Positions 2,856-37,317 of a stretch of DNA of 37,317 nucleotides are shown piece by piece. The notes beneath the pieces are model-generated. The model ran no database searches. It was not told where the DNA came from and saw only the letters and a list, made by a program, of their open reading frames with translations. Made by a program: the position numbers and the translations under genes. Origin of the DNA: a virus (taxonomy: Duplodnaviria; Heunggongvirae; Uroviricota; Caudoviricetes); the IMG/VR virus record IMGVR_UViG_2721755496_000005. One strand, 5' to 3'. Numbering within the stretch: the first letter of the stretch is position 1; each line of letters begins with the position of its first letter.

Positions 2856-3074
2856 TCAAAGAGAGAGCGCCACCTGTCCTGATTTCATTGGATGCGGCTG
2901 AACCGGATTTGACTCTTTTGGCGTTGCAATCGAACGAACAAAAGTTTCATGGGTAACAAAAGTATGGCTGCAGTTAATGTTCTGGCACTGGTTGTAACGC
3001 TCTTTGGTCAATGAAGATACCTGAAAACTGCTGCGAGTATGGGCGGCACTTCCACACAGTGGGCAAATCATCAT
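2856..3074 (-). CDS. ogr: Late gene transcriptional activator Ogr (Cys4 zinc finger)
   Basis: CPLC...CQNxNC zinc-finger pattern and about 72-aa length, as in P2 Ogr; start taken at the ATG preceded by GGGGAGA, not the upstream ORF start at 3107. Confidence 0.8.
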   Translation of the reverse strand: MMICPLCGSAAHTRSSFQVSSLTKERYNQCQNINCSHTFVTHETFVRSIATPKESNPVQPHPMKSGQVALSL

Positions 3075-3164
3075 TTTTCGAGTTCTCCCCATTTTTGCTA
3101 AATTCACAATAATGATACCGCATTATTCCATTTTGCAAACTTAAAAGTTCTCCATTGCGAAGAA

Positions 3165-19203: not shown

Positions 19204-19854
19204 TCAGCGGCTGTCATTGCGCAGTCTGCGCTCCAGCTGCTGTTTGTCTTTTTTCACGCCACAGCGGGGATCGAGCTGTAACGCATGGTTGAGATGATTA
19301 AGGGCGGACGCCGGATTGCTTTCACTCAGGACCGCGCCAATCGCTTTATGCAGACGTGCCCGTGACTGGTCCGGCATATCCAGACCGTCTGTCAGCTCCA
19401 GCGTCTGCAGCAACAGATCGGCATCAAAGCCGGTGGCGGCAAGCATTGCGCTCTGGGCTGCGTCTGCCATTTCCTCTGCCAGCACGGTCTGCACGTTGCG
19501 GTTACCCAGCGGCATCACCCAGCCATGACGCAGGGCATGACGCCCGATCTCCAGCGCCCCGGCATAATCTCCGGCATCAATGCGCCACAGCATCACGTAC
19601 ATCAGCACGTCATCCTGTTGCGCGCCTCCGGCAGCCAGGACACCCTCCGCCCAGGCGGCGTACTTCGGCAGCAGCTCCACCTTGATTTCCGCTTTTTTGA
19701 CCGTGGACTGAACGCCCTTGAGACGGCGGCGGTCTTCCGCCAGTTGCAGCAGCATCAGGTCATAGCCCGACGCGTGGCGAACACTGCCGCCCTCGCGGGC
19801 GGCCTGTTCAGCCTGAACGCGCAGGCGATGCTGCCGTGCGGGACTCAGGCTCAT
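19204..19854 (-). CDS. M: Terminase endonuclease subunit gpM (small terminase)
   Basis: 216-aa ORF between N and L in P2 order. Confidence 0.8.
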   Translation of the reverse strand: MSLSPARQHRLRVQAEQAAREGGSVRHASGYDLMLLQLAEDRRRLKGVQSTVKKAEIKVELLPKYAAWAEGVLAAGGAQQDDVLMYVMLWRIDAGDYAGALEIGRHALRHGWVMPLGNRNVQTVLAEEMADAAQSAMLAATGFDADLLLQTLELTDGLDMPDQSRARLHKAIGAVLSESNPASALNHLNHALQLDPRCGVKKDKQQLERRLRNDSR

Positions 19855-21908: not shown

Positions 21909-23675
21909 ATGAACACCACACTGACACCCGCAGATCTCGATCCCCGTCGGCAGGCCATGCTGCTGTACTTTCAGGGATACCGCGTAGCCCGCATTGCTGA
22001 AATGCTGGGCGAGAAAGTTGCAACCGTTCACAGCTGGAAAAAACGCGACAAGTGGGGTGACTATGGGCCGCTGGATCAGATGCAGCTCACCACCGCCGCA
22101 CGCTATTGCCAGCTCATTATGAAGGAGCACAAAGAAGGGAAAGATTTCAAAGAAATTGACCTGCTGGCACGCCAGTCGGAGCGCCACGCGCGGATCGGCA
22201 AGTTTAACAATGGCGGCAACGAAGCCGACTTAAACCCTAACGTCGCCAACCGCAACAAAGGGCCGCGCCGTCAGCCGGAAAAGAATGTTTTCACCGATGA
22301 ACAGATTGAGAAGCTGGAAGAAATCTTCCATTCCTCCATGTTCAACTACCAGCGCCACTGGTGGGAAGCTGGAAAAACCAACCGCATCCGTAATCTGCTG
22401 AAGTCACGCCAGATCGGCGCGACCTTTTACTTTGCCCGTGAAGCCCTGATTGACGCCCTGCTTACCGGACGTAACCAGATTTTCCTTTCTGCCAGTAAGG
22501 CACAGGCTCACGTCTTTAAGCAATACATCATCGACTTCGCCAAAGAAGTCGAGGTGGAGCTGAAAGGCGATCCGATGGTGCTTCCTAACGGGGCCACGCT
22601 TTACTTCCTCGGCACCAATGCCCGCACTGCCCAGAGTTATCACGGCAACCTGTATCTGGATGAATATTTCTGGATACCGAAATTCCAGGAGCTGCGCAAA
22701 GTGGCTTCCGGTATGGCTATTCACAAAAAATGGCGACAAACCTATTTTTCCACGCCATCCAGCCTGACACACAGTGCTTATCCGTTCTGGTCTGGTGCGC
22801 TGTTCAACCGTGGGCGCAACAAAGCCGATAAGGTGGACATCGACCTGTCCCACAGCAATCTGGCCCCCGGCCTGCTGTGCGCAGACGGGCAATACCGCCA
22901 GATAGTCACCGTGGAAGATGCAGTGCGCGGCGGATGTAACCTTTTCGACCTCGATCAGTTGCGCATGGAGTACAGCCCGGACGAATACCAGAACCTGCTG
23001 ATGTGCGAGTTTGTGGACGATCTCGCGTCCGTGTTCCCGCTCAGCGAGCTGCAGGCGTGCATGGTGGACAGTTGGGAAGTCTGGAGCGACTTTCATGCAC
23101 TGGCCCTGCGCCCGTTTGGCTGGCGCGAAGTGTGGATCGGTTATGACCCGGCAAAAGGTACGCAGAACGGCGACAGCGCCGGATGCGTGGTGGTGGCACC
23201 GCCAGCCGTGCCAGGCGGTAAGTTTCGCATTCTTGAACGTCACCAGTGGCGCGGGATGGACTTCCGCGCCCAGGCTGACGCCATCAAAAAACTGACCGAA
23301 CAGTACAACGTGACATACATCGGTATCGACTCAACCGGCGTCGGTCACGGGGTTTACGAGAACGTGAAAGCGTTTTTTCCTGCCGTCCGGGAGTTTGTCT
23401 ACAACCCCAACGTTAAAAACGCCCTGGTACTCAAGGCCTACGACATTATTAGCCACCGCCGCCTGGAGTTTGACGCAGGGCACACCGACATAGCGCAGTC
23501 CTTTATGGCAATCCGTCGCGCCACCACTGCCAGCGGCAACCGCCCGACCTATGAAGCCAGCCGCAGCGAAGAAGCCAGCCACGCCGATCTGGCCTGGGCA
23601 ACAATGCACGCACTGTTTAATGAACCGCTGCAGGGCGAGTCCGCCAATACCAGCAATATTGTGGAGATTTTTTGA
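21909..23675 (+). CDS. P: Terminase ATPase (large) subunit gpP
   Basis: 588-aa ORF divergent from O, overlapping Q by 4 nt. Confidence 0.9.
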   Translation: MNTTLTPADLDPRRQAMLLYFQGYRVARIAEMLGEKVATVHSWKKRDKWGDYGPLDQMQLTTAARYCQLIMKEHKEGKDFKEIDLLARQSERHARIGKFNNGGNEADLNPNVANRNKGPRRQPEKNVFTDEQIEKLEEIFHSSMFNYQRHWWEAGKTNRIRNLLKSRQIGATFYFAREALIDALLTGRNQIFLSASKAQAHVFKQYIIDFAKEVEVELKGDPMVLPNGATLYFLGTNARTAQSYHGNLYLDEYFWIPKFQELRKVASGMAIHKKWRQTYFSTPSSLTHSAYPFWSGALFNRGRNKADKVDIDLSHSNLAPGLLCADGQYRQIVTVEDAVRGGCNLFDLDQLRMEYSPDEYQNLLMCEFVDDLASVFPLSELQACMVDSWEVWSDFHALALRPFGWREVWIGYDPAKGTQNGDSAGCVVVAPPAVPGGKFRILERHQWRGMDFRAQADAIKKLTEQYNVTYIGIDSTGVGHGVYENVKAFFPAVREFVYNPNVKNALVLKAYDIISHRRLEFDAGHTDIAQSFMAIRRATTASGNRPTYEASRSEEASHADLAWATMHALFNEPLQGESANTSNIVEIF

Positions 23676-24700
23676 TGGGAAAGAGTAAGAAAAACCGCGC
23701 TGCGGCGACGAATCAGCTCAAGCATAAAAGCCAAACTTCAGCCGAAGCATTCAGCTTTGGCGATCCCGTTCCTGTTCTGGACCGCCGTGAACTGCTGGAC
23801 TATGTGGAATGCGTACAGATGGATCGCTGGTATGAGCCGCCCGTCAGCTTTGACGGACTGGCACGAACCTTCCGCGCCGCCGTGCATCACAGCTCACCAA
23901 TTGCGGTGAAATGCAACATTCTGACCAGTACCTACATCCCTCACCCGCTGCTCAGCCAGCAGGCTTTTTCACGTTTTGTGCAGGACTATCTGGTATTTGG
24001 TAACGCCTACCTGGAGAAACGCACGAACCGCTTCGGTGAAGTTATCGCCCTTGAGCCTGCTCTGGCAAAATACACCCGACGCGGGTTAGACCTGGATACC
24101 TACTGGTTTGTGCAATACGGTATGACAACCCAGCCGTATCAGTTCACGAAAGGCAGCATTTTTCATCTGATGGAACCTGACATCAACCAGGAGATCTACG
24201 GCCTACCAGGTTATCTTTCTGCCATTCCGTCAGCCCTGCTCAACGAGTCCGCCACGCTGTTCCGCCGGAAGTATTACATTAACGGCAGCCATGCAGGCTT
24301 CATCATGTACATGACCGATGCCGCGCAGAACCAGGAGGATGTGAACAACCTCCGCAATGCGATGAAAAGCGCCAAAGGCCCTGGCAACTTCCGCAACCTG
24401 TTTATGTACTCGCCTAACGGCAAAAAGGACGGGCTTCAGATCATCCCGTTGTCAGAAGTCGCGGCGAAGGATGAATTTCTGAACATCAAGAACGTCAGCC
24501 GTGATGACATGATGGCGGCACACCGCGTACCGCCTCAGATGATGGGAATTTTGCCGAATAATGTTGGGGGTTTTGGTGATGTGGAGAAGGCGAGCTGCGT
24601 CTTCGTAAGAAATGAACTATTACCACTTCAAAAAAGATTCATGGAAATAAACAGATGGCTTGGTCATGAAATTATAAATTTTGAAATATATACATTATAA
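23672..24700 (+). CDS. Q: Portal protein gpQ; last ~25 codons lie in AT-rich DNA and may be replaced
   Basis: 342-aa ORF after P; the 3' end from about 24615 is markedly AT-rich. Confidence 0.85.
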   Translation: MMGKSKKNRAAATNQLKHKSQTSAEAFSFGDPVPVLDRRELLDYVECVQMDRWYEPPVSFDGLARTFRAAVHHSSPIAVKCNILTSTYIPHPLLSQQAFSRFVQDYLVFGNAYLEKRTNRFGEVIALEPALAKYTRRGLDLDTYWFVQYGMTTQPYQFTKGSIFHLMEPDINQEIYGLPGYLSAIPSALLNESATLFRRKYYINGSHAGFIMYMTDAAQNQEDVNNLRNAMKSAKGPGNFRNLFMYSPNGKKDGLQIIPLSEVAAKDEFLNIKNVSRDDMMAAHRVPPQMMGILPNNVGGFGDVEKASCVFVRNELLPLQKRFMEINRWLGHEIINFEIYTL

Positions 24701-24705
24701 AACCC

Positions 24706-24728
24706 AACGGCATCACAATGATGCCGTT
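24706..24728 (-). terminator. Hairpin between convergent Q and the PIN-like cargo gene
   Basis: Perfect 10-bp stem aacggcatca / tgatgccgtt with a 3-nt loop, followed on the minus strand by a U-rich tract. Confidence 0.45.
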
Positions 24729-24737
24729 ATGAACGAA

Positions 24738-25799: not shown

Positions 25800-25920
25800 A
25801 CTAATCCTAATAAGTTTTAAGATCCGCTACAATTGTTTATGTTTATTTTTTATCAATAATCATACGTAGTTAAGATTATCCATGTCGAAAAATTAAATCA
25901 ACTTCAATTTATCCTTAAGC

Positions 25921-25944
25921 GCGCGCTCGTATCCCCGCCACGCC
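25921..25944 (-). other. Candidate cos (cohesive end) site
   Basis: Minus strand GGCGTGGCGGGGATACGAGCGCGC; the first 13 nt equal the 186 cos sequence as recalled (GGCGTGGCGGGGAAAGCAT); sits in a GC-normal island between AT-rich cargo genes. Confidence 0.4.
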
Positions 25945-26266
25945 TGCCCGCTTTATGTAGTGGTTTTCATGCACCTGCATGTTCTACGTAAAAGCCCGCT
26001 AGTTCTGGCGAGCCTTAGCAAAAACGATCCTTAAACGATCATGCGATTTCATGCAGCATAGTCATGCACTGTCTAAGAGAAGTGAAAGTCCGTATCTGAA
26101 TGACCACTTGAAAAACGAAACATACAGACTTACAAAGATGAAGCTCTACTGTGAGCGAGGAACATACATAGTTGCTCTGTAATAGCCAAATTTTAAGCAG
26201 GAAATCTCTTTTTTATGACAAAACTATAAAGAAAAACAGACCGTTTCATCTCTCAATGAAACTATA

Positions 26267-28094: not shown

Positions 28095-28122
28095 CCCCCA
28101 TCAGAATGAATCCTCTTGGGGG
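28095..28122 (-). terminator. Possible terminator of the tum-like / dinI-like operon
   Basis: Stem ccccc / ggggg with an 18-nt loop, then a moderately U-rich tract on the minus strand; weak. Confidence 0.3.
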
Positions 28123-28717: not shown

Positions 28718-29074
28718 TTAATACAGGTTCCGCCACTTATCATCTTCCCGCAAACACTGGTTCCGATAGAAGATACGCAAGCCTGCTCCTGACGGAATAC
28801 TGCCGCCGCGAAGGAGTAAATCGACCTCTTTCTCGCTACCATCAAATCCTCTGGACTTCAGCTCATAGACGAGCTGCAGTCGCTGATGGTCTGTAATTCG
28901 CTGTTTGTAGTCTTTACGCCGTTTCGGTTTCACCAGGCGTAACCTTGCAGCCAGTTCCCGGCGCTCTTTTTTGTTCATACTGTGCAGGTAATCGTGCAAC
29001 TCCTTGTCATCCATGCTGGTAATGTCCGTTCTGGGGTCCCCATCAGCTGATTTATCTTTCTCCTGTTGGTTCAA
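28718..29074 (-). CDS. Hypothetical phage protein
   Basis: 118-aa ORF overlapping the gpA stop; basic and charged; no family recognised. Confidence 0.5.
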
Positions 29075-31158
29075 ATTTTCAGCAAGGGGACAGTTATTGC
29101 CACGAGTCCAAGGGGACAGTTATTGCCACGAGTCCAAGGGGCGCAAGCGCCCTGGTCGGCTGCCGCCTCCTGAACATCAACGGCCTTACGAACCATTTTC
29201 CACTTCACGGCATGAGTGCAGATCTTGCCCTCTGCAATAGGTGACCAGATGCCATAAATACGAATGCCGTGATCGCCATAGGCGGTCGGCTCTTCGTTGA
29301 TTTCATAAGCGGTTCTGATGAGGTGATATTTGCGGGGAACCAGTACGCCGCCCTGCTTCATGATGTAGGTGGCAAAACAACCAGCATCAGCAGCAGCCAG
29401 GATGGCATCAAGGCGTGGGTTATCCAGTACCGGCGCACCTGCTTTTTTGTCCCCCTGTTGCCTTGCCGCCTGACCAGCCAGCAATCGCAGTTCACGGTAA
29501 GCCTGACGCCCCGGAATGCCAAAGAAGCGGAATTGCTGAACACGATGCAGAGACGCCCAGGCATTAACGTATTCAGCATTATCACGCAGGGATTTCCCCG
29601 TTTCCTTGCTGATCTCGCCAGCCAGACCACGCCCGTCAATGTTCTTACTGATGTATTTCGCGATGTAGCTTGTTGGCGTTCCTTTGCGCGGGTTAATCAA
29701 CTCAGACTTAAAGCGCGGCCCAGTGTTATTGCCCAGCTCCTCGCGGTCTTCACGGATGGCAAACTTACGCAGTAATGCAGTGATGGCACGGCGGTCTTTT
29801 TTGCGCATGAAACACAACAGGTGCCAGTGAACTGTGCCGTCATGATGCGGCTCAGCCACCCGCACGCCATACCAGCGCAACCCGGCTTTGTGCATCGCCT
29901 TACGAAATGCAGCAAACATGCCGACCAGATAATCGCTGCTTTGTCTTACCGTCGCGTTTGTCCAGGTCGGGTTTGGTCTGCCGTTATTGAGCGTGGAATG
30001 GAAACGTGACGGACAGGTGATGGTGTAGAAAACGGCGCAGTCACCGCGCATTTCCGCGATAAGCTCCAGACCTTTAACACAGGCCATCATCTCATTGCGG
30101 CGATGCGCCGGGTTGCTGCTGCTGGCGTTTACCACATCCTCCATGTCCAGCGTGTCGCCGTCTTCGTTCACCAGTTCATGAGAACGGAAAAACTCCAGCG
30201 ACTTACGGCGCTGCTCACGTTTATGCATCACGGCTTCATAGCTGACATAGGGAGATGCTTTTTTGCTGACCAGGCAGACAGCACGCAACTGCTCTTCCCG
30301 CCATTCGCAACGCATCCTCCATAATTTCCGATACCACCAATCGGCGCACAACATACGCGCCAGCGAACCCGGAATGAGTTCATAGGGCACGGGTTTACGG
30401 CGGTTTCTTTTCCGACGGAGTTGCTCAAACGCAGGAGGGATTACATCCAGACGCAGGGTTTCCGCTGCCACCTTTTCCCATGTCTTGCGGATTTCTTCTG
30501 GCTTAACGTCATCGGTGGCATACAAATCACCACAAGCTGCATCAAGGCACATGCTCATATGCGCGGCAACAAGGGTAGACAGGCGCTTCACCTGATCCTG
30601 ACTCATTTCAGGCAGGATCAGCAGGCCGTCCAGCCCTTCATGGCTTGCCATAAAGCGAAAAGAAGTGGATAGCTGACTCTCGCGTACATGCTCCAGTCGT
30701 TCCAGACATGGCTTAATCGTCTCACGCAAATAGCGGGAATAAGCCTTTGGCCTGCCCAGGCTGCTGAAGTATTCAATACGTTGCATCAGCGGCTTGCTGA
30801 TATGGGAAGGCTGGGCGTTGACGTCCGCCAGAATGACCATATCCGGATTAAAACGCTGCTGCTCATGCGCCAGCTTTGCCCGACTAATGAGCTTATCCTG
30901 CTCGATTTCGCGCTGGACAGGATCACGGGATTCATTAAAGAAATAACGCTCCCAGACCTGATCACTCAGCGCCTCACGGCGCAGCTGTTCCTGCTCGTTA
31001 TCGGCAGCGTACAGAGTGATCAGGTTTGAAAGCGCAGAAACCGGCGCAACTTCCGCCGGGTCCAGATAAGGGTTAATGGCCTTTTTCGGGCTGCTCCATG
31101 AGAATGCTGCTGCGACCTCGTTAAAGCCGCTGCAGTTGTTCATATCAGCATGGCTCAT
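29071..31158 (-). CDS. A: Replication initiation endonuclease gpA (rolling-circle initiator)
   Basis: 695-aa ORF with the VHWHLL and YIAKYISKN motifs recalled as characteristic of P2/186 gpA-type initiators; size close to 186 A. Confidence 0.88.
29085..29136. repeat. Perfect 26-bp tandem direct repeat (2 copies plus 5-nt partial third) within the 3' end of gene A
   Basis: aggggacagttattgccacgagtcca at 29085..29110 and again at 29111..29136, then agggg. Confidence 0.9.
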
Positions 31159-32012
31159 GCACGCACTCCGTACACGGCAGAACTATCCACGCCACGCGAA
31201 GGATCAAATCCCACCCAGCAGCGCGGCCCGGAAACAGCGATGATTTCTGTTGCTGATTTACACTCGCCAGCTGCCACACCGATGCTGCGTTTTACCTTGA
31301 TATAGTGGTGAGTAAAATTGCGATACAGCGAACGAATCAGGGATGTGTCACTGTTAGAAACAATGACCGGATGTCCTTCAGATGATCGATGTTCAAGAAC
31401 GGATGCCAGGTGATACTGGTCATCTTCAGTGAAACCATCAGTGTGATAGCCGGAAAACGTACCGTCATAAGGCGGATCGCAATACACCACATCCCCCGCC
31501 TTCAACATCGCCAGCGTTTCATCAAAGCTGGCGCAGATAAACGTTGCCCGCTGGGCTTTTTCTGCAAATGCGCGAATTTCTTTTTCAGGGAAATACGGAT
31601 TTTTATAATTCCCGTAGGGAATGTTGAAATGTCCGCTCTTGTTATAACGACATAACCCACGGTAACCGTGACGATTGAGATACAGGAAATATACTGCTTT
31701 CATGAAATCAGTAATTTCAGATGAGTAATTAAACTCCTGCCTTATGTTGTAATAAGCCACCTCCCTGTTTGCTTCCTCAAATAAGACTCTGGCACGAGAT
31801 ATAAATGATTCGCAATCAGCGGCAATCTTTTTATAGAGGTTGATTAAATCAGGATTAATATCAGCAACCAGATAGCTGGGGTAATCCGTCGCCATCATCA
31901 CAGCACAGGAACCCGCGAAAGGTTCAACCAGTCGCGGGCCAGCAGGAAGGTGTTTTTTCAGTTCGGACATAATGGCGGTTTTATTACCCGCCCATTTCAG
32001 GATGGTGCTCAT
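31155..32012 (-). CDS. dam: DNA adenine methyltransferase (Dam-like)
   Basis: Start at ATG 32012 with GGAGG RBS; N-terminal LKWAGNK and catalytic DPPY motifs; 285 aa. Confidence 0.88.
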
Positions 32013-32236
32013 ACAGCACCTCCGTTGTAATGTTTGCCTTTCAGCTCTGCGATTTCCTGGCAGGTAATGCAAAGCTGCACTCCCGGAATGGCGCGGCGTC
32101 GTGCTGGCGGAATTGGCGCTTCACATTCAATACAAAGCACGCGAGACACGCCCGGTGTTTTGGCACGGGCAGCACGAATATGGCGCTGGCGTTCTTCTTC
32201 AACGCGCTGCTGTACGAGATCCATTGCATCAGCCAT
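32009..32236 (-). CDS. TraR/DksA-family C4 zinc-finger protein
   Basis: 75 aa with CxxC-N17-CxxC (CIEC...CITC) near the C-terminus. Confidence 0.7.
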   Translation of the reverse strand: MADAMDLVQQRVEEERQRHIRAARAKTPGVSRVLCIECEAPIPPARRRAIPGVQLCITCQEIAELKGKHYNGGAV

Positions 32237-33908: not shown

Positions 33909-34505
33909 ATGTCAACATCAAAGTACCCAAATGAGATCAAAATAAATCCCAATAAAGGTGGTAAGGCTGCGATTGAGCGATTAGTCGAAGCTTATGGCTT
34001 TACGACACGACAGGCTTTAGCTGATCACTTGGAAGTATCAAAAAGCACTCTGGCGAACAGGTATTTGCGGGATACGTTTCCTGCAGACTGGATAATCCAA
34101 TGTGCTCTTGAAACAGGAACCTCACTGAAATGGTTAACCACCGGGCAAGGCCTTAAGCAAAGCTCGCTGACAGCAGCTACAGAAGAGCTTGCCAAGTTTC
34201 GCCTTACCGCAGGCAAAATGATTGAAGATGGTTCATATGTCTTCGATTCATCATTTCTTCCTGCAAATCTTTCATCACCAATTGTTATTCAGGATGGGCT
34301 CGTCACATACATTTGTGATCAAAAATTTTCTGAAGTACTTGATGGGCACTGGTTAATCAACATCGACGGAACCTATTCCATTCGAAAAATCACAAAGCTT
34401 CCAAAAGGTATGATTAAAATTACAAGTACAGAGAATAGCTTTGAATGTGCATTTTCTGATATTGAAGTAGTTGCTTGTATAAGAAGTACAATAGTTTCAA
34501 ATTAA
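33909..34505 (+). CDS. cI: Immunity repressor, 186 CI-like
   Basis: 198 aa; the pattern EAYGF...LA-H...S-LANRY...CALETG-SLKWLTTGQG resembles the 186 CI N-terminal domain as recalled. Confidence 0.7.
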   Translation: MSTSKYPNEIKINPNKGGKAAIERLVEAYGFTTRQALADHLEVSKSTLANRYLRDTFPADWIIQCALETGTSLKWLTTGQGLKQSSLTAATEELAKFRLTAGKMIEDGSYVFDSSFLPANLSSPIVIQDGLVTYICDQKFSEVLDGHWLINIDGTYSIRKITKLPKGMIKITSTENSFECAFSDIEVVACIRSTIVSN

Positions 34506-34525: not shown

Positions 34526-36202
34526 ATGAATTCATTTTCCATCGTTATATTCTTATTAGCATTTCTCGCCCCCATTCTAGCTGTAATATTATTTAAGCAA
34601 AGCAAAAAACATAAAGCGGCTATAGATACCTTGACAGCTAACAACATAGCCCTTTCCAACCAACTGAAAGAAAATCAAGAAGAATTAGCACAGACTGTAC
34701 GAGATCTATCAGAGCTTGAAGGACGAGCTGCACCATTATGGCAATACGTAGAATTGCACAGCGCAGTGATGGAAGCAGAGAATAAGATAAAAAATGCAGA
34801 CTCAATAGCCAGGCAAAAAATAGAAGAAGCCCAAATAAAGGCTGCTAAGACAGTAAACGAAGCAAATTATCAAGCTCAGATAAAAATAAGCAACGCTAAT
34901 AGCGAAGCTATAGCAATTACTAAAGACGCTCGCGATGCACGCCTGAAAGCTAAAGAACGTCTTGATAATGCCAATAGTAAAGCAAATGAGCTGATCTCAA
35001 ATGCTAATGACAATGCAGTGAAAATTATTTCCGATGCAGAAGAAAGAGCAAAAGAGATTGCTGGTTCAGCATATGAAGCTAAAGAGTTTGCAGAAAAATA
35101 TGAAGCAGTTGCCAAATCAATGAAAAATAAAATTGAAGGTTATGGTGATGAATGGATCATCCCTAACCGTAGCGTTCTCGATGAATTGGCAGAAAATTAT
35201 GAGTTTACAGATGCAGGCAAGGAATTACAAAAAGCCAGGGAGTTAACAAAATCATTAATAAAAACTAATAAAGCTGCTTCGTGTGATTATGTTGAACAAA
35301 ACAGGCGTAATACTGCTATCAACTTTGTTTTAGATGCCTTCAATGGAAGAGTTGACAGTATTTTATCAAAAGTCAAACACAACAATTTTGGAAAACTTTC
35401 CCAAGAGATAAAAGATGCGTTTCAACTTGTAAATTACAATGGTTCTGCCTTTAGGTCCGCAAAAATAAGTGACATCTATCTTCAAGCTCGACTCAACGAG
35501 CTAAAATGGGGTGTTGCAGTTAATGAAATTATGCTCGAAGAAAAAGAAGAGCAAAGAAGGATTAAAGAACAACTTCGTGAAGAGGAAAGAGCTCGTAGGG
35601 AGTATGAAAAAGCGATAAAAGAAGCTGAAAAAGAAGAGAAAGCTATTCAGCAAGCTATAAATAAAGCAACAAAAGAGCTTATGCTTGCAAATGAAGAACA
35701 ACGCTTAGCTTTAGAGCAAAAAATAGCTGAACTACAGTTAAAATATGAAGAAGCTGAAGCTAAAAACCAACGAGCTATTTCTATGGCTCAACAAACTAGA
35801 TCAGGCCACGTTTATATAATTAGTAATATTGGCTCATTTGGCGAAGATGTATATAAAATTGGAATGACACGCCGCCTTGAACCACTTGATCGTGTTCGTG
35901 AACTCGGTGATGCTAGTGTTCCTTTTTCGTTCGATGTTCATGCGATGATTTATAGTGATGATGCACCATCATTAGAAAATCATCTGCATAAAGTCTTCAA
36001 CGAAAAACAGGTCAATAAAATTAACTCACGAAAAGAGTTTTTCAACGTAAATATTAAAGAAATTAAGTCTGTTATTGAAGATATGAACATCAACGCACAA
36101 TGGACAATGTTTGCGGAAGCGAAAGAATATAGAGAGTCACTGGCGATTGAGCAAGAGCGCAAAGCAGCAACTTCCGCCAACGATGAACTGCATGTTGCTT
36201 AG
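34526..36202 (+). CDS. Cargo protein: N-terminal transmembrane helix, long coiled coil, C-terminal GIY-YIG-like (T5orf172/MUG113-type) domain
   Basis: 558 aa in AT-rich DNA, 21 bp after cI with AAAGGA RBS; hydrophobic N-terminus, about 380 aa of heptad-like Lys/Glu/Ala-rich sequence, then GHVYIISN...YKIGMTRR...R-x3-E-L...N. Confidence 0.6.
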   Translation: MNSFSIVIFLLAFLAPILAVILFKQSKKHKAAIDTLTANNIALSNQLKENQEELAQTVRDLSELEGRAAPLWQYVELHSAVMEAENKIKNADSIARQKIEEAQIKAAKTVNEANYQAQIKISNANSEAIAITKDARDARLKAKERLDNANSKANELISNANDNAVKIISDAEERAKEIAGSAYEAKEFAEKYEAVAKSMKNKIEGYGDEWIIPNRSVLDELAENYEFTDAGKELQKARELTKSLIKTNKAASCDYVEQNRRNTAINFVLDAFNGRVDSILSKVKHNNFGKLSQEIKDAFQLVNYNGSAFRSAKISDIYLQARLNELKWGVAVNEIMLEEKEEQRRIKEQLREEERARREYEKAIKEAEKEEKAIQQAINKATKELMLANEEQRLALEQKIAELQLKYEEAEAKNQRAISMAQQTRSGHVYIISNIGSFGEDVYKIGMTRRLEPLDRVRELGDASVPFSFDVHAMIYSDDAPSLENHLHKVFNEKQVNKINSRKEFFNVNIKEIKSVIEDMNINAQWTMFAEAKEYRESLAIEQERKAATSANDELHVA

Positions 36203-36285: not shown

Positions 36286-37317
36286 ATGGCAGTACGAAAA
36301 CTCACCACAGGAAAATGGCTTTGCGAATGTTACCCCGCCGGACGTAGTGGACGTCGTGTGCGTAAACAATTCGCCACCAAAGGCGAAGCTCTGGCTTTTG
36401 AGCGTCACACGATGGAAGAAACCGAAGCAAAGCCCTGGCTGGGTGAATCAGTGGATCGTCGAACACTGAAAGACGTGGTTGAACTATGGTTCAAACTACA
36501 TGGTAAATCTCTGACAGCTGGGCAGCATGTCTATGACAAATTGCTGTTGATGGTTGACGCTCTGGGCAATCCCCTTGCAACCGATCTCACCTCTAAAATG
36601 TTTGCCCACTATCGAGATAAACGTCTGACAGGAGAGATCTACTTCAGCGAAAAATGGAAGAAAGGAGCAAGCCCGGTCACCATTAACCTGGAGCAAAGCT
36701 ATCTAAGTAGTGTTTTTAGCGAACTATCCCGCCTGGGCGAATGGTCGTATCCGAACCCACTGGAGAACATGCGAAAATTCACCATCGCAGAAAAAGAGAT
36801 GGCATGGCTTACCCATGAGCAGATTGTTGAATTGCTGGCTGATTGCAAACGTCAGGACCCAATTCTGGCACTGGTAGTTAAGATATGCTTAAGCACAGGC
36901 GCACGTTGGCGTGAAGCCGTAAATCTTACCCGCTCACAGGTGACCAAATACCGAATTACCTTTGTAAGAACGAAGGGGAAGAAAAACAGAAGCATCCCTA
37001 TCAGTAAAGAGCTTTACGAAGAGATCATGGCGCTTGATGGGTTCAATTTCTTTACAGACTGCTATTTTCAATTTTTATCCGTGATGGAAAAAACGTCTAT
37101 CGTGCTCCCTCGCGGTCAACTGACACACGTTCTGCGCCATACGTTTGCGGCGCACTTCATGATGTCGGGTGGAAATATCCTGGCCTTACAAAAAATTCTC
37201 GGGCATCACGATATAAAAATGACTATGCGTTACGCACATCTGGCACCGGATCACCTGGAAACTGCATTACGGTTTAATCCGCTGGCAACACTACCAACAT
37301 CAATAGCAAGTTTTTGA
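36286..37317 (+). CDS. int: Tyrosine integrase (P2/186 family)
   Basis: 343 aa; C-terminal catalytic region with LTHVLRHTFA...HHDIKMTMRYAHL (R, H-x-x-R, Y); stop codon is the last triplet of the window. Confidence 0.9.
   Translation: MAVRKLTTGKWLCECYPAGRSGRRVRKQFATKGEALAFERHTMEETEAKPWLGESVDRRTLKDVVELWFKLHGKSLTAGQHVYDKLLLMVDALGNPLATDLTSKMFAHYRDKRLTGEIYFSEKWKKGASPVTINLEQSYLSSVFSELSRLGEWSYPNPLENMRKFTIAEKEMAWLTHEQIVELLADCKRQDPILALVVKICLSTGARWREAVNLTRSQVTKYRITFVRTKGKKNRSIPISKELYEEIMALDGFNFFTDCYFQFLSVMEKTSIVLPRGQLTHVLRHTFAAHFMMSGGNILALQKILGHHDIKMTMRYAHLAPDHLETALRFNPLATLPTSIASF

Follow-up and report, generated by a model that had tools for sequence, protein, structure and literature searches.

Prophage layout and the island between two cargo genes

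The window, by which we mean the whole 37,317-nt stretch of DNA analyzed here, carries a P2/186-like prophage. Host genes occupy its left end (a glutaredoxin gene and an Asp-Al_Ex permease gene that runs to position 2620). The prophage is about 34.6 kb long, which is a packageable size, and contains ogr, tail, head, terminase, gpA, CI/CII and int genes (Table 1). The ogr gene is followed by gpD and the tail genes, and capsid and scaffold genes come after the gene for the gpM homologue. DinI is encoded between the HEPN gene and gene A, and CII and CI lie beyond a methyltransferase gene. All of the morphogenetic, terminase, replication and lysogeny genes are full-length ORFs. The gpP homologue is presumed to cut cos and to serve as the ATPase of packaging. 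With DNA of E. coli strain H2 (NZ_CP010163.1) the window shares 99.9% identity, and the stretch from the PIN to the HEPN gene is without annotation in that record. In addition, a gene for a 558-aa DUF4041/T5orf172 protein was found between CI and the integrase gene (34526-36202, plus strand). It matched the PADLOC model PD-Lambda-1 (E=4e-120), so that a known defence gene is present at the lesser, int-proximal hotspot as well.

Table 1. Features of the prophage and of the block between its cargo segments. Offsets in parentheses are relative to the first base of the predicted cohesive end.
Feature	Position	Strand	Remarks
ogr	2856-3107		followed by gpD and tail genes
Terminase small subunit (gpM homologue), presumed cos recogniser	19204..19854	minus	Pfam Phage_term_smal, E=2.2e-40
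Terminase large subunit (gpP homologue)	21909..23675	plus	Pfam Terminase_5, Terminase_6N, Terminase_6C
Portal protein (gpQ homologue)	23672..24700	plus	Pfam Phage_portal; 'phage portal protein' in NZ_CP010163.1
Q-side (virion left-end) AT-rich cargo segment	24640..25918	minus	holds PIN_12 gene and promoter-like site
PIN_12-domain gene, 353 aa	24738-25799	minus	Pfam PIN_12, E=1.5e-25
cos block, 151 bp (-125..+26)	25919..26069	minus	sole conserved DNA between the two cargo segments
Heptamer GCGCGCG, directly 5' of inferred bottom-strand nick (+26..+20)	25919..25925	plus	edge of block on the Q side
Predicted 19-nt 5' cohesive end GGCGTGGCGGGGATACGAG	25944->25926	minus	in register with annotated 186, P2 cosL and SEN8 ends
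Heptamer GCGGGCA, directly 5' of inferred top-strand nick (-7..-1)	25945..25951	minus	also in P2, 186 and P4
Proximal GCATGA repeat	25967..25972	minus	GCAT at -28 in 97% of the 113 contigs listed
Imperfect palindrome GCTCGCCAG-AA-CTAGCGGGC	25994..26013	minus	consensus by end type
GATCGTTT pair, 11 bp apart (AAACGATC on plus strand)	26022..26040	minus	lineage-specific spacer element
Distal GCATGA repeat 3	26039..26044	minus	GCAT at -100 in 86% of the 113 contigs listed
Distal GCATGA repeat 2	26049..26054	minus	GCAT at -110 in 81% of the 113 contigs listed
Distal GCATGA repeat 1	26062..26067	minus	GCAT at -123 in 65% of the 113 contigs listed
A-side (virion right-end) AT-rich cargo segment	26070..28121	minus	holds TPR + HEPN gene
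TPR + LA2681-type HEPN gene, 525 aa	26267-27844	minus	Pfam HEPN_LA2681, E=1.9e-38
Replication gene A (gpA)	29071-31158	minus
CI repressor	33909-34505
Integrase	36286-37317

Two AT-rich cargo segments interrupt the interval between the portal gene and gene A. The products of their two genes are both predicted RNase-type proteins. When the PIN and HEPN cargo was compared with the PADLOC 2023 defence models, no match was obtained save a weak TPR hit, and each of the two genes may be a candidate for single-gene defence or abortive infection, so far uncharacterised. On the minus strand at 25888-25859, the sequence TCGACA-18-TATGAT resembles a promoter (10/12). It is located about 60 bp ahead of the PIN start codon and about 30 bp from the block; judged by this site, the left cargo seems to carry a promoter of its own. 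An 11-pair hairpin, TAACGGCATCA-TTG-TGATGCCGTTG, occupies 24705-24729 between the convergent portal and PIN genes, a suitable place for a terminator, probably one serving both directions. The tQ/tW terminators of P2 and 186 similarly adjoin the portal gene. It has been reported that the gpA-gpQ interval around cos is a defence hotspot (Rousset et al., PMC9122126), and the view that foreign genes settle between cosL and Q is of long standing (PMC5694545).

An island of normal GC content separates the two segments, as an earlier note on this DNA had described. GC content is 52.3% in the conserved block, compared with 32.7% and 32.3% in the cargo segments and 54.7% in the prophage core. The note had placed the island at 25915-26075; the island itself is real, and the functional unit within it is slightly narrower, extending over the 151 bp from 25919 to 26069.

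Alignment of the block with P2-family cos sites

The island had been put forward as a candidate cos site, with alignment to known P2-family cos regions as the suggested check. For P2, 186, Salmonella phage SEN8 and satellite P4, the right end of the genome was joined to the left end and aligned with the minus strand of the window; here and below, offsets are counted from the first base of the cohesive end in the minus-strand reading. The region passed this check, as all four matched without gaps: not a single one was required from -125 to +26, and the G+C-rich 19-nt end was in register. In this gap-free alignment, the 19-nt end was identical to that of SEN8 at 19/19 positions, to 186 at 15/19 and to P2 and P4 at 14/19 each. 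Over the 55-bp core (-29..+26), identities were 54/55 for SEN8, 44/55 for 186, 42/55 for P2 and 43/55 for P4; P2 and P4 agree with each other at 52/55 of the same columns. This core of P2 and P4 is attributed to Ziermann and Calendar (1990) in passages of three papers (PMC5694545, PMC3931495, PMC9594776).

The minus strand, read from 25944 down, is GGCGTGGCGGGGATACGAGCGCGCGC; the predicted end GGCGTGGCGGGGATACGAG is followed on this strand by CGCGCGC, and the plus strand at 25919-25951 reads GCGCGCGCTCGTATCCCCGCCACGCCTGCCCGC. A 13-nt match to the 186 cohesive end, which the earlier note had given, was borne out, in that the first 13 nt of the end are positions 1-13 of 186 cos (U32222). The GenBank record of 186 starts at its cohesive end, GGCGTGGCGGGGAAAGCAT, and that of P2 at GGCGAGGCGGGGAAAGCAC. 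The SEN8 record (NC_047753) opens with GGCGTGGCGGGGATACGAGCGCGCGC and its positions 1-19 are annotated as 'putative cos site'; the SEN8 genome paper gives ggcgtggcggggatacgag as cos (PMC5427200). A literature search for mapped virion ends of Fels-2-type (ATACGAG) cos sites returned nothing past the SEN8 annotation.

The annotation of 186 cos in U32222 (1-19) states 'top strand cut at 5' end and bottom strand cut at 3' end'. By homology to this annotation, the predicted nicks fall between 25945 and 25944 on the minus strand and between 25925 and 25926 on the plus strand. Each would lie directly 3' of a heptamer, and the two heptamers (25919-25925 and 25945-25951) are two-fold-symmetric partners. 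Among the matches listed in a survey of IMG/VR, GCGGGC(A/G) was present in 113 of 118 distinct contigs, with -5..-1 preset by the search pattern, and GCGCGC(A/G), a stretch outside the search pattern, in 105 of 118. Past the GCGCGCG heptamer, sequences are fully divergent. The symmetry of the nick heptamers accounts for the end of portal-side conservation at +26, and we take -7..+26 as the nicking site proper.

The position of the portal gene fixes the orientation of cos. The end sequence points away from gene A, and the gpQ gene follows the 19-mer on the other strand. This is also the layout of P2 and 186 and agrees with the orientation relative to Q that had been proposed from the sequence; in the P2 and 186 records, the portal gene is likewise on the opposite strand, about 170 bp downstream of the end. 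The block lies between gpA and gpQ, a layout that fits the P2 and 186 records and the cos placement described for the P2 family (PMC9122126). We consider it highly probable that window positions 25919-26069 are the cos site of a Fels-2/186-like P2-family (Peduoviridae) prophage integrated in E. coli.

To the survey belong at least 120 loci, which were collected by an exact-pattern scan of IMG/VR and form a non-random sample of contigs sharing GGGCRGGCGWGGCGGGGA. Among the matches listed, the ATACGAG end type of the window was the most frequent (43 loci including the window), followed by the P2 type (30), the ATAGCAT type (19) and the 186 type (12). In these IMG/VR contigs, at least 120 in number, the 19-nt end took at least 12 forms, with changes clustered at positions 5 and 13-19; ends belonging to different types would be complementary only in part. 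For 40 distinct contigs of the same end type as the window, among the matches listed, ungapped column conservation was 0.8-1.0 within the block and dropped to about 0.4 to either side of it. The BLAST alignments with 83-91 phage records stop at about the same limits, 25916-25919 and 26067-26070. Conservation is asymmetric, reaching 7 bp past the cut on the portal side and 125 bp on the side of the replication gene (gene A).

End type co-segregates with terminase (identity to the window's proteins is at least 84% for gpP and at least 81% for gpM within the window's type, versus about 63% and about 49% in other types). Use of this co-variation for finding the recognising subunit was considered and abandoned: head, terminase and replication proteins all diverge together by lineage, and since all core proteins split alike, no binding subunit is singled out.

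Cargo exchange, repeats and alternative readings of the block

It had been anticipated that, if the island is cos, the packaging site would separate the two cargo genes. This arrangement was observed, with PIN on the portal side and HEPN on the side of gene A. In other E. coli prophages, replacement of cargo begins precisely at the two edges of the block, which places PIN at the extreme left and HEPN at the extreme right of virion DNA. In E. coli AF5, homology breaks at 25919 and the portal-side cargo is a P-loop NTPase gene instead; the whole block is identical to that of the window, and the HEPN/DinI/gpA side is about 98% identical. In E. coli 09-02E, 99% identity extends up to 26069, the HEPN segment is absent with 68 bp in its place, and homology is back at 28122. 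The block of 09-02E shows nine differences from that of the window, all between -118 and -38. The window thus looks like a recombinant, as its PIN side and -37..+26 match 09-02E and its HEPN side and -125..-38 match AF5. A crossover inside or next to the cos block would fit this pattern, which comprises two sequence comparisons. PIN and HEPN cargo occurred together in 1 of 5426 complete E. coli genomes, and the two assort independently. Among the matches listed, cos and Q were more than 400 bp apart in 23 of the 27 contigs that share the end type of the window (median 1763 bp) and in only 4 of 26 P2-type contigs.

Four copies of TCATGC (25967, 26039, 26049 and 26062, all on the plus strand) had been noticed in the island. 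On the minus strand they read GCATGA, at offsets -123, -110, -100 and -28, and the proximal repeat at -28 opens the 55-bp P2/P4 core, which runs from TGCAT to GCGCGC. GCAT is present at about the same four offsets in P2, 186, SEN8 and P4, with the -123 copy shifted by 1 in P2. The suggestion that these repeats serve as terminase recognition elements was strengthened by their fixed offsets, at which GCAT recurs in 65-97% of the 113 contigs listed (distinct contigs of all end types), and by their occurrence in P4. The 66-bp spacer between the distal cluster and the proximal repeat contains no indels, and its sequence agrees at only 12/66 positions between P2 and P4 and at 20/66 between the window and P2. 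It has been reported that the common ground of P4 with P2 is cos only and that the P2 terminase packages P4 (PMC9122126). The fact that the GCAT repeats keep a fixed distance and are common to P4 despite unrelated spacers makes them the best candidates for terminase contacts. From these comparisons, they appear to be the likeliest terminase recognition elements. A literature search for an account of the GCAT repeats found none.

An alternative is that the four TCATGC and two AAACGATC copies arose by chance in a spacer of normal GC content and that only the 55-bp core matters. The published element common to P2 and P4 is indeed this core, and TCATGC, with 26 copies on both strands of the whole window, is not enriched window-wide. 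However, when 26 sites were placed at random 20000 times, four fell within 101 bp in just 16 trials. GCAT keeps its four offsets in all end types and also in P4, with no indel over 125 bp, and the natural cargo boundary is at -125 rather than at -29. This reading is unlikely, and for GCAT it is rejected because the motif is conserved at fixed offsets. A different possibility is that the block is a remnant in a defective prophage, homologous to cos and no longer cut or packaged. Substitutions at -67, -56 and -38 were absent from the 41 same-type IMG/VR contigs among the matches listed, and one of them breaks the spacer palindrome. However, the same alleles are found across the whole block in the independent AF5 prophage, and the right-hand module is matched at 99.3-99.6% in about nine other genomes; the -67/-56/-38 alleles thus recur in other E. 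coli prophages with the same right-hand module, which makes decay unlikely. Neither the 55-bp core nor any of the four GCAT repeats is disrupted, the phage genes are full-length ORFs, and we regard a remnant as quite improbable.

It could also be argued that the island belongs to the cargo, either by acting in its regulation or as RNA (a promoter, a terminator or a small RNA) or by encoding a small protein. A weak terminator-like hairpin is present at 25948-25963 on the plus strand, and in some phage records a 'hypothetical protein' is annotated over the homologous stretch. This hairpin was rejected as a candidate: it has 5 pairs including a G-T pair and, by inspection of the alignment, is not conserved as a hairpin in the lineage. 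A search of the block against Rfam gave no match at E<=1, and no ORF of more than 24 aa lies within the block. The block stays constant while the flanking cargo is exchanged or absent and is therefore not part of the cargo, and it aligns to experimentally defined cos ends. The probability that we assign to this reading is close to nil.

The spacer of this cos site contains additional elements. The copies of AAACGATC noticed earlier, at 26022 and 26033, are the sole ones in the window. As the GATCGTTT pair on the minus strand, they hold GATC at -96 and -85, each followed by a T-tract. The pair is conserved at 0.8-1.0 within the same cos type and absent from P2, 186 and P4; among the matches listed, GATC was found at -96/-85 in 38-39 of 41 same-type contigs. 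The lineage consensus of the palindrome is a perfect GCCCGCCAGaaCTGGCGGGC, from which the window deviates at two positions through its private substitutions at -67 and -56; the CCAG..CTGG centre recurs in other end types. An 11-mer pair across the left junction, ATCCTTAAGCG / ATCCTTAAACG (25911 and 26027), was dismissed as chance, given that by estimate about 0.4 such pairs are expected per 300 bp.

A gene for a D12-class (Dam-type) adenine methyltransferase (31155-32072, minus strand) was detected directly upstream of gpA. Among the matches listed, Dam was adjacent to gpA in 15 of 18 contigs of the window's cos type and in 0 of 11 of the P2 type. In phage P1, TGATC(A/G) hexamers are clustered to either side of the pac cut, and cleavage of pac depends on adenine methylation. 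Compared with P1 pac, the GATC sites at -96/-85 of the window are both on one side of the cut, and one only has the form TGATCG. A link between GATC and Dam was seen across types, where 15 contigs had at least two GATC sites and Dam, 18 had fewer than two and no Dam, and 11 were mixed, but the association is confounded by lineage and fails within the ATAGCAT type. The joint proposal that cos recognition through the GATCGTTT pair is sensitive to Dam methylation and that the cos block serves as a crossover point shuffling left and right defence cargos is speculative and, in our judgment, probably incorrect. If true, Dam-sensitive recognition would tie packaging to the phage's Dam-like methyltransferase beside gpA, in a P1 pac-like manner.

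Proposed packaging mechanism and comparison with known systems

The best-supported reading is that the prophage would be packaged in the way that is standard for the P2 family. After excision and replication, terminase (gpM small and gpP large subunits) would recognise the block and nick the two strands 19 nt apart, each just 3' of a GCG(G/C)GC(A/G) heptamer. A linear genome would thereby be released with 5' overhangs consisting of GGCGTGGCGGGGATACGAG and its complement, which would re-anneal after injection. The GCAT repeats are the putative terminase-binding elements, with a role analogous to that of the lambda cosB R sites, and the fixed length of the spacer may keep them in phase with the cut site. 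AT-rich foreign genes would be inserted or exchanged up to both edges of the block; we propose that insertion right up to these edges is tolerated because nothing past -125 and +26 is needed. Natural cargo swaps, as seen in the compared sequences, likewise suggest that nothing outside -125..+26 is required.

The location of cos would fix the ends of the virion chromosome for a prophage whose RefSeq record carries no cos annotation. In addition, the natural deletion map, together with the GCAT repeats, could be of use in designing minimal P2-type cosmids as well as transducing particles. It has been reported that the length of cos flanks affects transduction efficiency (PMC9594776).

Several known systems can be compared with the block, which falls outside the lambda cos family. 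The lambda cos site has a nicking site with partial two-fold symmetry, and short repeats on one side of it bind the small terminase subunit. The block of the window may work alike by analogy, although the lambda overhang is 12 nt compared with 19 nt here. A further difference from lambda is that the IHF consensus WATCAANNNNTTR, with at most one mismatch allowed, had no match inside 25919-26069.

P2 and P4 share with the window the 55-bp core from TGCAT to GCGCGC, the three distal GCAT copies and variable DNA directly past GCGCGC. In P4, this variable DNA is a defence hotspot (PMC9122126), giving the same asymmetry as in the window. However, the end is identical at 14/19 and the core at only 42-43/55 positions, the spacer is unrelated, and in P2 cargo (old, tin) is found on the A side only. 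The site of 186 agrees with the window in register, orientation to the portal gene, 19-nt stagger and the first 13 nt of the end, as well as in GCAT at -124/-111/-101/-29, a CGCCAG..CTGGCG palindrome and GCGCGC after the end. Differences at end positions 14, 16, 17 and 19 mean that the ends of 186 and of the window would be complementary only in part. The spacers agree at 32/66 positions, and 186 is without cargo between cos and the portal gene, where only the tW terminator is present.

The putative cos site of SEN8 matches the window at 26/26 positions of the 19-nt end and next 7 nt, at 30/30 positions of the distal repeats and at 54/55 of the core, and SEN8 likewise has cargo genes between cos and the portal gene. 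It differs by ten substitutions in the 66-bp spacer and by other cargo on both sides, and the SEN8 site is known from annotation only. The cos type described here is thus already known in kind and sequence from SEN8, and its arrangement is ordinary for the P2 family; publications already cover the hotspot around cos, the presence of cargo between cosL and Q, and the 55-bp core. To these, our analysis makes modest additions, namely the exact limits of the 151-bp block, the symmetric heptamers at the predicted nicks and the GCAT repeats at fixed offsets that are common to P4.
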